The notes beneath the pieces are model-generated. The model worked only from the letters and a program-made list of their open reading frames with translations. It did not search any database and was not told the DNA's origin. This document shows positions 6,286 to 56,868 of a stretch of 64,000 nt of DNA, in pieces. The stretch is from an uncultured delta proteobacterium. Lineage in GTDB: Bacteria; Desulfobacterota; Deferrimicrobia; Deferrimicrobiales; Deferrimicrobiaceae. Position numbers and translations under genes: made by a program. Within the stretch, counting starts at the first letter, position 1, and each line of letters opens with the position of its first letter. The stretch is from contig CAVYRM010000004.1 in assembly GCA_963770975.1 (NCBI GenBank), forward strand, positions 65,622 through 129,621. The letters are read 5' to 3'.

Positions 6286-6372
6286 TGGTGCCGAAGAGGG
6301 GAGTTGAACCCCTACGCCCTTGCGGGCACCAGACCCTGAATCTGGCGCGTCTGCCAGTTCCGCCACTTCGGC
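6286..6372 (-). tRNA. tRNA-Leu (anticodon CAG), long variable arm, encoded CCA
   Basis: The minus-strand 87-nt sequence is GCCGAAGTGGCGG...CCAGA-TTCAGGG-TCTGG...AGGGGTTCAACTCCCCTCTTCGGCACCA. The acceptor stem GCCGAAG/CTTCGGC, the T-arm GGGG-TTCAACT-CCCC and anticodon-loop positions 34-36 = CAG are all readable. Confidence 0.92.
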
Positions 6373-21119: not shown

Positions 21120-22312
21120 AGCTTTCGAGCCGGGTAGGGAGAATCAAGCCGTCCCCGACGCTTGCGATCACCGGGAAGGCGAAGCAAATGAAGGCGCAGG
21201 GGATCGACGTGGTCGGTTTCGGGGCGGGAGAGCCGGATTTCGACACTCCGGACAATATCAAGGCCGTCGCCAAGAAGGCGTTGGACGACGGGTATACGAA
21301 ATACACCCCGGTCCCGGGTTCGCCGGAGCTGAAGGACGCCGTCATCGCGAAGCTCAAGCGGGACAACGGGCTCGAGTACAAGCGGGAGAACGTCATCGTC
21401 TCCCTCGGGGCGAAGCACTCGATCTACAACGTCGCACAGGCGTTTCTCGATCCGGGCGACGAGGTGATCATCCCCGCCCCGTACTGGGTGTCCTACCCGG
21501 ACATCGCGCTCCTGGCGGACGCCACGCCGGTGATCGTGGAGGCGAAGCAGTCGACGGGTTTCAAGATCACGCCGGCCCAGCTGGAAAAGGCGATCACCCC
21601 GAAGACGAAGCTCTTCGTGCTGAACAGCCCCTCCAACCCGACGGGGGCGGCCTACACGAAGGCGGAGCTCGAGGCGCTGGCCCAGGTGATCGTGAAGAAG
21701 GACATCACCGTCCTTTCGGACGAGATCTACGAGAAGCTCGTCTACGACGGGTTCCGTTTCGTCTCGATCGCCTCGCTGGGCGAGGAGGTGAAGAAGCGGA
21801 CGATCCTCGTGAACGGGCTGTCCAAGTCCCACTCGATGACGGGGTGGCGGATCGGGTACGTGGCGGCGGACAAGGATCTCGTGGCGGCGATGAACAACAT
21901 CCAGAGCCAGAGCACGAGCAACCCCGTGTCGTTCTGCGACAAGGCGTCGATCGAGGCGCTGAACGGCCCGCAGGACTTCCAGAAGGCATGGGTCGCCGAG
22001 TTCGACCGTCGTCGCCGCTACATCACCGATCGTCTCAACAAGATGCCCGGGGTATCGTGCCTGCTGCCGCAGGGGGCGTTCTACGTCTTCCCGAACTTCT
22101 CCGGGTGCTACGGGAAGAAGACCCCGGCGGGCAAGGTGATCGACGGCTCTTCGGCCCTCTCGGCCTACCTGCTCGACGACCACAAGGTGGCGGCCGTCCC
22201 GGGGATCGCCTTCGGCGACGACGCGTGCCAGCGGCTCTCCTACGCCACGTCGATGAAGAACATCGAGAAGGGGATCGACCGGATCGAGCAGGCCGTCAAG
22301 GCCCTCGCGTAA
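21116..22312 (+). CDS. Pyridoxal-phosphate-dependent aminotransferase (aspartate aminotransferase class I)
   Basis: ATGA overlap with coaD. Diagnostic segments are GAGEPDFDTP, NSPSNPTGA and GLSKSHSMTGWRIGY (PLP lysine). Confidence 0.88.
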   Translation: MKLSSRVGRIKPSPTLAITGKAKQMKAQGIDVVGFGAGEPDFDTPDNIKAVAKKALDDGYTKYTPVPGSPELKDAVIAKLKRDNGLEYKRENVIVSLGAKHSIYNVAQAFLDPGDEVIIPAPYWVSYPDIALLADATPVIVEAKQSTGFKITPAQLEKAITPKTKLFVLNSPSNPTGAAYTKAELEALAQVIVKKDITVLSDEIYEKLVYDGFRFVSIASLGEEVKKRTILVNGLSKSHSMTGWRIGYVAADKDLVAAMNNIQSQSTSNPVSFCDKASIEALNGPQDFQKAWVAEFDRRRRYITDRLNKMPGVSCLLPQGAFYVFPNFSGCYGKKTPAGKVIDGSSALSAYLLDDHKVAAVPGIAFGDDACQRLSYATSMKNIEKGIDRIEQAVKALA

Positions 22313-22321
22313 CCGACCCGA

Positions 22322-22358
22322 CGGTTCCGCGGGGAGGCACGTTCTCCCCGCGGAACCG
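22322..22358. terminator. Perfect 14-bp hairpin after aminotransferase stop (terminator candidate, no U-tract)
   Basis: CGGTTCCGCGGGGA (22322-22335), 9-nt loop, TCCCCGCGGAACCG (22345-22358). Confidence 0.4.
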
Positions 22359-22414
22359 GGACTTTCCTCGCAACGGGCCCGAGAAGAATATTCCACCTCA
22401 TCGCCGTACCTGGA

Positions 22415-22539
22415 GCGGGATCCCCTCCCGAGCGGGCGTGTGTTTTTTCCGGAGGCATGGACGCCGAGAGGGAAAAACACCCGCCAGCGTAGGCCGCCAG
22501 GGACGGCGGCCGGAGCGTAGCGAGGGAGGGTGATCCTGC
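22415..22539 (+). repeat. 121-nt structured intergenic element, copy A
   Basis: Closing helix 22417-22429 / 22524-22536 with bulged T22531. Box GAGCGGGCGTGTG at 22430-22442. Hairpin 22435-22450 / 22470-22485. Hairpin GGCCGCC-AGGGAC-GGCGGCC at 22492-22511. Box GAGCGTAGCGA at 22513-22523. It matches copy B at 56689-56809. Confidence 0.6.
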
Positions 22540-22577
22540 GGAAGGGAAGGCGGGTTCGGGGAATATAACGCGGGAGC

Positions 22578-22991
22578 TCAGAGGGGGCGTTGGCCGGTTT
22601 TCTTGAACCGGAAGTAGTCCTCGAGGATCTTCGCGTGGTCGAACGCGATCGGGGAGGGGAGGTCCCCCTCGCCGAACAGCCGCGCCTCGGCGGCGTCGTC
22701 CCCGCCGTTCGGCTCGCCGTCGGAACGGCCGACGTACACCGTGGAGATCGTGTGGTGGCGCGGATCCCGGTTCGGATCGGAGTAGACGCCGAGGAGCGCG
22801 GTGAGGGTCACCCGGAGGCCGGTCTCCTCGAACGCCTCGCGCACGGCCGCGGTTTCGACGGTTTCGCCGGTCTCGACGAACCCGCCGGGGATCGCCCAAC
22901 CCGGCGGGGGATACTTCCGTCGGACGAGGACGACGCGGTCGCCGATCTCGATGACCACGTCGACCGTGGGTAGCGGATTACGGCCTGCCAT
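22578..22991 (-). CDS. NUDIX hydrolase
   Basis: The Nudix box is GGFVETGETVETAAVREAFEETGL. The ORF is 137 aa. Confidence 0.88.
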   Translation of the reverse strand: MAGRNPLPTVDVVIEIGDRVVLVRRKYPPPGWAIPGGFVETGETVETAAVREAFEETGLRVTLTALLGVYSDPNRDPRHHTISTVYVGRSDGEPNGGDDAAEARLFGEGDLPSPIAFDHAKILEDYFRFKKTGQRPL

Positions 22992-56597: not shown

Positions 56598-56688
56598 TCC
56601 GGGCCGGTGATAATGTGCTTTCCCGGAGGACGTGAACGGAACGGTCGATACAATCGCTTTGATGCTGATGCAGCGGGGTACTGACGCA

Positions 56689-56809
56689 GGGGGCCTTCCC
56701 CTGAGCGGGCGTCTGAAGCGAGTGGAGCCAGGGACGGCGGGAACGAGCGGAGGCGCAGCGAGGGCGGCCAGGGACGGCCGCTGAGCGGTAGCGAAGGGGA
56801 ACGGCCCCC
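56689..56809 (+). repeat. 121-nt structured intergenic element, copy B (dut-purB spacer)
   Basis: Closing helix 56689-56702 / 56795-56809 with bulged C56802. Box GAGCGGGCGTCTG at 56703-56715. AGGGAC motifs at 56730-56735 and 56770-56775. Hairpin GGCGGCC-AGGGAC-GGCCGCT at 56763-56782. Box GAGCGGTAGCGA at 56783-56794. Confidence 0.6.
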
Positions 56810-56868
56810 GAGGAAGAGGGGCCCCGCTGCGAAACAGGTAGAGCGATCCGGAGACCGGGGGTGACGAC

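Follow-up and report, generated by a model that had tools for sequence, protein, structure and literature searches.

A dispersed transposon-like repeat with candidate CsrA-binding hairpin loops in a genus of uncultured Deltaproteobacteria

The DNA analyzed here is a stretch of 64,000 nucleotides (nt) from an uncultured delta proteobacterium of the family Deferrimicrobiaceae (GenBank assembly GCA_963770975.1, contig CAVYRM010000004.1, positions 65,622 to 129,621 of the forward strand), hereafter referred to as the window; it belongs to G000, a 1.5-Mb metagenome-assembled genome (MAG) that is 65% complete. Within the window, the genes encoding a class I/II aminotransferase and a NUDIX hydrolase converge on a spacer that harbors a structured element, copy A, which had been annotated from the sequence as a three-way junction lying between positions 22415 and 22539. 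The RNA of positions 22405 to 22550 (plus strand) was predicted to fold with a free energy of -86.8 kcal/mol compared to -60.0 ± 4.3 kcal/mol for dinucleotide shuffles (z = -6.2), none of 200 shuffles being as good, and its minimum-energy structure is indeed a three-way junction with helices P1, P2, and P3 where the initial annotation had placed them, P1 extending to 22415/22539. The reverse strand of copy A folds more weakly (-69.9 kcal/mol; z = -5.0). The limits given for the element were nevertheless too narrow, as the inverted repeat of copy A with its flanks pairs over positions 22388 to 22566 (-106.8 kcal/mol; z = -7.6). The corresponding match of a covariance model of the family (R1, described below) spans C4:88010-88185, i.e., window positions 22389 to 22564, with a score of 175 bits. 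The features of copy A and its surroundings are listed in Table 1.

TABLE 1 Coordinates in the window of copy A, its parts, and associated features
Feature	Position	Strand	Remarks
Full copy A	22388..22566	+	Long imperfect inverted repeat with the three-way junction at its center; outermost arms AATATTCC and GGGGAATAT
P0 outer helix, 5' strand UCGCC	22401..22405	+	Partner GGCGG at 22549-22553
P1, 5' strand	22415..22429	+	Partner 22524-22539
GAGCG box	22430..22434	+	GC at 22432-33 pairs with GC of GTAGCGA at 22520-21; 2-bp helix closing the junction
P2 arm	22435..22485	+	Lower stem 22435-22450 with 22470-22485
P2-tip hairpin GGC-AUGGAC-GCC	22454..22465	+	First putative CsrA-type loop, A-N-GGA-N; GGA at 22459-22461
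AGCG box	22486..22489	+	GC at 22487-88 pairs with GC of GGAGC at 22515-16
P3 hairpin GGCCGCC-AGGGAC-GGCGGCC	22492..22511	+	Second putative CsrA-type loop; GGA at 22501-22503
GGAGCGTAGCGA box	22512..22523	+	Most conserved stretch of the family; common to E1, E2, and the GGA-less relative E2'
P1, 3' strand	22524..22539	+	Partner 22415-22429
Stop codon of convergent NUDIX gene	22578..22580	-	11 nt past the end of copy A; usual position for the family
Perfect 14-bp hairpin 3' of aminotransferase stop	22322..22358		Outside the element
Copy B	56670..56831	+	Sister family E2; two GCC-AGGGAC-GGC hairpins; upstream of a purB-like open reading frame; 62.9 bits with R1

The sequence and fold also bear out the GAGCG, AGCG, and GGAGCGTAGCGA boxes of copy A, and the tetranucleotide AGCG recurs in every junction strand as had been proposed. 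These strands are not purely single stranded, however, since two of the boxes form 2-bp helices, one of which covaries. The P2 arm had been described as ending in a plain 19-nt loop; its tip is itself a hairpin that had been overlooked, and the two GGA loops of copy A are spaced 42 nt apart. Likewise, the second copy recognized in the window (copy B) does exist, at about positions 56670 to 56831, but its P2 has not been replaced by a second AGGGAC unit as suggested, both copies having two GGA-loop hairpins. As for the plus-strand promoter TTTCCT-18-AATATT that had been considered, a promoter scan of positions 22100 to 22800 was negative, and AATATT belongs to the outer stem, where it forms the outermost 5' arm of copy A and pairs with GGGGAATAT. 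The helix equivalent to P0 reads GGAGGCGC/GCGCCTCC in most other copies. Copy A is a composite, with P1 and P0 of one sub-family and P2 and P3 of another, and looks like an old or recombined copy. The hairpin at the aminotransferase side of the spacer is probably the native terminator between the two convergent genes, because repeat-free orthologous spacers keep a hairpin there. The sole Rfam match in the window is a tRNA gene at positions 6289 to 6372 (minus strand).

Several searches identified copy A as one of many. BLAST retrieved numerous copies, 131 to 134 nt in length and with 74 to 89% identity, from five genomes belonging to the genus, while an exact two-box pattern run over 185,579 species genomes matched only in five MAGs named "Deltaproteobacteria bacterium." Among the 29 genomes of the genus, R1 counted 53 copies in G012, 31 in G007, 29 in G011, 27 in G043, 25 in G009, 8 in G010, and 3 in G000, with 1 or 2 in each of four further genomes and none in the remaining eighteen. 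The three approaches agree with the "dispersed structured repeat" that the initial annotation had offered as one of three options, and its concern that the element might be unique to two loci can be set aside, given the hundreds of homologues in related genomes. The family is restricted to a few uncultured Deltaproteobacteria of one genus. No Rfam family matched copies A and B or about ten copy-bearing loci, either at gathering thresholds (window) or in permissive scans, the latter returning chance-level scores only (RsmW at 12 to 20 bits and some miRNA models). In addition to copies A and B, G000 contains a third copy at C8:12781-12958 and two truncated pieces. A truncated copy of G000 at C9:161099-161140 (minus strand) comprises no more than the 5' half of E1 (42 nt at 95% identity) and adjoins the start of a ksgA/rsmA-like gene, at a locus where G012 and G007 carry full copies. 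Copy B has an orthologue-like counterpart in G001 (L222, G001:C7:19027-19145), a genome without csrA, in which one arm has been swapped for an E1-type P2; modules thus seem to be exchanged between sub-families.

Comparison of the orthologous sites gave the same picture of a family in motion. The spacer between the aminotransferase and NUDIX genes ranges from 10 to 470 nt among relatives: it is 10 nt long in G044, measures 57 to 68 nt and contains only the hairpin in G014, G016, and G043, carries an E1 copy in the opposite orientation together with the sister element E2 in G012, and holds unrelated structured repeats in other genomes. Moreover, contigs of relatives in public sequencing runs skip the element, and at the L062 locus transcripts skip 256 nt. 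Variable copy number and orthologous sites that are empty or differently filled indicate a mobile element, and copy A is almost certainly a member of this dispersed mobile family. The spacer itself (orthologues of window positions 22313 to 22577) is a hot spot, with at least four structured repeat families in different genomes; one of these begins with CCCCCGGTACCAGCCACCGGGGGCAT in G009 and G006 and is reversed in G020, G002, and G021. The core of the element lies in opposite orientations at two orthologous loci, L022 (G012:C8) versus L054 (G011:C36) and copy A versus G012:C7:284831-285002, which could be due to independent insertion or to inversion of the core by recombination between long terminal inverted repeats (TIRs).

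A structural alignment of 40 copies, from which R1 was built, showed that the fold is maintained throughout the family. Standard pairs occupy 98.2% of the pair cells and compensatory changes on both sides occur at 15 of the 38 pairs, although the copies group into few sub-families and independent substitution events are fewer than these cell counts imply. When the 3' partners were slid by 1 to 3 columns as a control, pairing fell to 39 to 60%. Covariation is present in the basal stem P1, the P2 arm, and the P3 arm alike. In P1 (helix 1), 97% of the cells are paired and two pairs show compensatory changes, and in the lower stem of P2 (helix 4), both sides have changed at six of seven pairs with 99.6% of the cells still paired. 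The P2 stem accordingly comes in three pairing-competent versions across the sub-families, UUUUUUCC/GGGAAAAA, UUUUCGCC/GGCGAAAA, and CCUUGGC/GCCAAGG. P3 (helix 7) has three compensatory pairs. Even the short junction helices vary consistently with pairing: the GC of the GAGCG box (helix 2) changes from G:C to G:U in 11 copies, and the GC of the AGCG box with that of GGAGC (helix 6) covaries from C:G to U:A in 11 of the 40. G-U cells are far more frequent than A-C cells (about 52 versus about 7), which indicates that the structure is formed by the plus strand, i.e., the one bearing the AGGGAC loops.

The most constant positions lie in the two terminal loops. In loop 1, the A and the GGA are kept in 40 of 40 copies, and in loop 2, the corresponding A, G, G, and A are found in 40, 39, 39, and 40 copies, while the N positions of both loops vary. 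Loop 1 usually reads A-U-GGA-G, and loop 2 reads A-G-GGA-Y in 34 of the 40 copies. Since the tip of P2 is itself a hairpin, every family member has two C-[A-N-GGA-N]-G hairpins. In E1a, E1b, E1-2, and E2, as well as in a distinct repeat family of a more distant relative (G040), both loops retain the A and the GGA, while the stems diverge with compensation. The recognition consensus of CsrA/RsmE obtained by systematic evolution of ligands by exponential enrichment (SELEX) is RUACARGGAUGU, with A(N)GGA placed in a hairpin loop. By their sequence, the C-A-N-GGA-N-G hairpins of the element fit the core of this consensus.

The ends of the family suggest how it moves. According to the flank alignment, most copies are bounded by TIRs of about 40 nt of the form GTGCTCCATTTCA.AA.TAC.G...GGAGGCGC. 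These family ends, GTGCTCCATTTCA.AA.TACGG..ACGTAT..GGAGG, resemble (about 80% identity) the TIRs of G007:C31:1224-3244, where the two ends lie 2 kb apart around a gene for a 408-residue DDE_3 transposase of the IS630 family (PF13358, 50 bits). This candidate autonomous IS630-family transposon (L224, G007:C31:900-3600, element at about 310 to 2360 of the locus) has inverted ends that are identical over at least 70 nt, and it also holds a 102-residue open reading frame that resembles, as judged by eye, a BrnT/DUF497-type toxin. Because the IS630-family transposon has the same ends, the copies are probably mobilized in trans by the transposase that it encodes. The end motif is present in all 29 genomes, 4 to 59 times in each, whereas the reversed control gave none. 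It mostly forms inverted pairs 142 nt apart, which correspond to plain elements that measure about 164 nt and lack the GGA module; such elements were examined at L225 to L229 (G018, G010, and G022), G010 alone having about 25 near-identical copies. Taken together, the family is an IS630-type miniature inverted-repeat transposable element (MITE) with the structured module as cargo. Half of the TIR-bounded copies are doublets with the arrangement [E2 reverse][E1 forward] inside one pair of ends, and 12 of the 13 close pairs (within 250 nt) are divergent. The outer end GTGCTCC lies directly 3' of TAA, TAG, or TGA, a triplet that mostly serves as the stop codon for a gene oriented toward the element, and the junctions read T(A/G)A|GTGCTCC, the vertical bar marking the boundary. 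For seven elements, the flanking triplets were compared: they are TTA/TTA in three (L021, L227, and L228), share TA in L226 (TTA/TAA), and are unlike in L225, L229, and L048. The GTAG-containing box of the family had also suggested a link with repetitive extragenic palindromic (REP) sequences and REP-associated tyrosine transposases (RAYTs). This idea was rejected, as the carriers G043, G011, and G010 lack the Y1 transposase domain (PF01797), which many element-free genomes possess.

We then considered where in the genus a CsrA protein is encoded. G000 carries the gene cluster flgK-flgL-csrA-fliW-flagellin, with csrA at C2:52436-52666 encoding a protein of 76 residues, and in the leader of the flagellin gene, the hairpin GGGC-AAGGAU-GCCC precedes the Shine-Dalgarno sequence AAGGAGGA by 25 nt. 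Hairpin and Shine-Dalgarno sequence together presumably represent the classical CsrA site pair of FliW-type systems, and the first of the two sites matches the hairpins of the element in shape. The flagellar region of G000 (flgK, flgL, csrA, fliW, flagellin, and flhA) occupies C2:49500-57500 and C2:91082-93046. Both csrA (PF02599) and flhA (PF00771) were detected in the same six genomes out of 29 and in no others, i.e., G000, G007, G009, G010, G012, and G043. All six of these csrA-positive genomes carry GGA modules, and none of the eighteen module-free genomes has csrA. The exact hairpin GCCANGGANGGC occurs 18 to 124 times per csrA-positive genome, 73 times in G011, and 6 to 18 times in csrA-negative genomes, in which the abundant form is E2', a shorter relative without GGA hairpins. 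The GGA cargo is thus amplified only in the six csrA-positive genomes plus G011, while the vehicle is present in 29 of 29. According to the trees of two unlinked genes, which are in agreement, the csrA-positive genomes do not form one clade, and the concatenated tree rejects their monophyly (approximately unbiased test, P = 2e-155), with G000 placed as sister to the csrA-negative G018, G012 inside a csrA-negative group, and G007 as sister to G041. This scattering of csrA and flhA over the two-gene tree indicates that the flagellar region has been repeatedly lost or transferred. The initial annotation had missed the association with csrA as well as the GGA loop at the P2 tip and the transposon-type ends that characterize the family.

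Outside the genus, G040, a member of a different family of the same phylum, has csrA and a different multi-copy repeat with AGGGAC hairpins. This repeat (L211 to L219) is about 150 nt long and has a Y-shaped center, GGTGGGGCGGGC-CUCCGU-GCCCGCC...GGCGGCC-AGGGAC-GGCCGCCCCACC, flanked by an AT-rich TTATATGAAAATAT box. The case adds little weight to the link with csrA, because 6 of the 16 out-of-genus relatives like G040 have csrA.

The surroundings of the copies speak to two further explanations. A convergent gene is faced by 20 of 29 copies, 15 of which lie within 50 nt of its stop codon, and only 9 of the 29 have a co-directional gene on their 3' side, the neighboring genes being unrelated. One terminator-like site was found inside copy A, on the NUDIX-sense strand, and full elements have the U-rich stretch GUAUUUAUGAAAU 3' of the big stem in both directions. 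These features, along with stable folds on both strands, would suit a structure that acts at transcript ends, as a terminator or 3'-end stabilizer for the abutting gene in either orientation, in the manner of REP sequences or bacterial interspersed mosaic elements (BIMEs), with the GGA loops being incidental. However, a TA/TAA insertion target in a genome of 65% G+C equally explains the position at stop codons, and the orthologous spacer is already provided with a conserved hairpin. Such a role would also leave the invariant A-N-GGA-N loops, the plus-strand G-U bias, and the restriction to csrA-positive genomes unexplained, and we consider it improbable.

The initial annotation had doubted that the element is a pure riboswitch, and the unrelated neighbors and the many copies facing a convergent stop codon argue in the same direction. 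The three-way junction is complex and covarying and has conserved junction nucleotides, and copy B lies upstream of a purB-like gene; these features might still recall a cis-acting riboswitch or a single-copy, stand-alone small RNA (sRNA) gene with its own promoter. A constant 5'-leader position before related genes was not found, however, given the few and unrelated co-directional 3' genes. The neighbors have nothing in common and are mostly convergent with the element, a genome may hold tens of copies when its close relatives have none, and Rfam has no matching family. With a negative promoter scan and a supposed -10 box that lies inside a stem, this explanation is very hard to credit.

Public sequencing runs were also searched for signs of transcription, but the organism is poorly represented in them (best share of words 0.28, in DNA runs). 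Metatranscriptome contigs of relatives contain E1-like copies; these data lack strand information, involve a multi-copy element, and may include contaminating DNA, and they show at most the presence of E1-like copies in RNA libraries. In one run, with unstranded data that are not DNA-free, E1-like copies were deeper than the flanking genes.

Our proposed explanation is that of a genus-restricted mobile structured repeat whose GGA loops serve as CsrA docking sites and which has been amplified together with csrA. As a whole, it has in our view about an even chance of being correct, and a biological role of the GGA loops as CsrA sites is close to an even call or slightly below it. The vehicle would consist of TIR-bounded copies moved in trans by the IS630-family (DDE_3) transposase and would usually insert directly on a T-A-containing stop codon. 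Its cargo would be the three-way-junction module, i.e., a basal stem with two arms, each tipped by a C:G-closed hexaloop A-N-GGA-N. The plus-strand module RNA is predicted to bind one CsrA dimer through both GGA loops, 42 nt apart. Many copies together might then act as a dispersed CsrA sink, or neighboring transcripts might be put under CsrA control, in an organism whose CsrA belongs to a FliW-flagellin circuit. Transcription of the plus strand, binding of CsrA, and any regulatory effect are all three inferred. A further step would be that amplification of an RNA module carried by a transposon has given rise to a CsrA-binding network distributed over the whole genome, in bacteria with the FliW-flagellin partner switch; this is advanced only tentatively, and we hold it to be somewhat doubtful. 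To our knowledge, no RNA antagonist has been described for FliW-type CsrA systems.

A simpler explanation would be a purely selfish IS630-type MITE, whose fold and loops serve transposition or DNA stability, or reflect recent common descent, and have no function as RNA; the link with csrA would then exist because the repeats travelled with a horizontally moving flagellar island. Ends in common with a DDE_3 transposon, the large copy-number variation between genomes, empty orthologous sites, the E2 copy within the flagellar region of G000, the frequent antisense orientation to neighbors, the negative promoter scan, and intact copies in csrA-negative genomes are all in keeping with it. On the other hand, such transposases act on terminal repeats and not on internal cargo, and every genome contains plain elements of about 164 nt that share the ends of the family but lack the module. 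Moreover, the stems have diverged with compensation, yet the A and the GGA are invariant across E1a, E1b, E1-2, E2, and the G040 family, and the excess of G-U over A-C (about 7 to 1) points to a single-stranded, strand-specific structure. A purely selfish element therefore seems unlikely to us, although less so than a role at transcript ends.

Several observations nonetheless weigh against CsrA docking by an element amplified with csrA. Some concern the association with csrA itself. G011 (57% complete) has 29 copies, and neither csrA nor flhA was found in it, and the single copies in the csrA-negative G001, G002, G006, and G041 keep intact GGA loops. The sister contrasts are concordant (three of three that are well supported and five on all branches), but 3 to 5 independent contrasts are too few for significance (sign test, P = 0.25), and the species tree consists of two genes from MAGs. 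In G000, the distance between flhA and an E2 copy is about 3 kb, and co-transfer of the repeats with a flagellar island would also give the co-occurrence with csrA. Others concern the vehicle and the transcript. The similarity of copy A to IS630-type ends is no better than that of shuffled sequence, such ends being recognized at the level of the family only. Of 25 copies with both neighbors called, 13 are antisense within a same-direction gene pair, and because of this antisense or convergent placement, read-through from a neighbor would usually yield the GUCCCU strand and not the GGA strand. A scan of window positions 22100 to 22800 for sigma-70-like promoters gave none that passes, and reading the terminal repeats for sigma-70 or sigma-54 sites revealed nothing convincing.

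Should the network reading be true, the element would represent a mobile element that has been domesticated, or selected, through a host RNA-binding regulator, and the Csr link, to date a proposal for RNAs of the TwoAYGGAY type, would gain its first comparative evidence. Multi-copy GGA-loop RNAs of this type are common, and their function and mode of spread are both unresolved. The genus offers a natural experiment in this respect, with the vehicle in every genome and tied to a specific transposase family, and the GGA cargo abundant only with csrA. If CsrA does bind the module, a mobile element can rewire post-transcriptional control, sponge-type control would reach FliW-type systems, and a testable model would be available for the Pseudomonas elements. 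If it does not, the family is still a clean case of a cargo-carrying bacterial MITE aimed at stop codons.

Among known systems, REP sequences and BIMEs with their RAYTs are likewise structured extragenic palindromes found after gene ends, and the element shares with them a conserved GTAG-containing box, but its unit is far larger and branched, and the distribution of the Y1 transposase does not match. The family also resembles MITEs of the IS630/Tc1-mariner group: the copies are short, noncoding, numerous, and polymorphic in their insertion sites, their TIRs share about 80% identity with the ends of a DDE_3 transposon in a sister genome, and their junctions lie at T-A-containing triplets. Unlike these elements, the family has a conserved, covarying, RNA-like internal module, which is absent from its plain members; its target duplication is not cleanly TA, and copy A has lost or never had recognizable ends. 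With the antagonist sRNAs of the Csr/Rsm systems (CsrB and RsmY/Z/W; Rfam clan CL00106), the element has in common the GGA in C-A-N-GGA-N-G hairpin loops, and weak, nonsignificant RsmW matches fell on the P3 hairpin and on one other copy. It differs from them in having two sites per unit, with no promoter or terminator of its own found, and in being dispersed as tens of copies instead of residing in one or two dedicated genes. Its host also has CsrA control of the FliW partner-switch type, for which we know of no established sponge RNA.

The closest described system is the TwoAYGGAY RNA motif (RF01731; Weinberg et al. 2010, PMC2864571). In Pseudomonas, these RNAs occur in tens of copies per genome with strong strain variation, 68% of their doublets are divergent, and they are associated with other repeats; their loops have been proposed as Csr/Rsm sites (sponges), their mobility and function being left unresolved (bioRxiv 10.64898/2026.09.22.753630). 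As in the present family, a basal stem carries two sequential hairpins with GGA in terminal hexaloops, and the element is multi-copy, varies in number between close relatives (here from 0 to 53), and is associated with other repeats. Divergent doublets are common to both (12 of the 13 close pairs here, compared to 68% in Pseudomonas), and the loops of both are proposed Csr/Rsm sites. The RF01731 model gave no match at E ≤ 10 on copy A, copy B, or nine other copy-bearing loci. The loops of the family read A-[U/G]-GGA-[G/C/U] and not AYGGAY, with G in most copies at position 6 of loop 1 and at position 2 of loop 2; in addition, the long helix of the first arm is interrupted, and the junction is closed by 2-bp AGCG helices. 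The family resides in an uncultured deltaproteobacterial genus that has a FliW-type CsrA and not a Gac/Rsm system, and the module sits inside IS630-type terminal repeats, which offer a concrete mechanism of mobility. To what has been described for TwoAYGGAY RNAs, the family thus adds a host lineage with FliW-type CsrA, an identifiable IS630-type vehicle, and co-occurrence with csrA within one genus.

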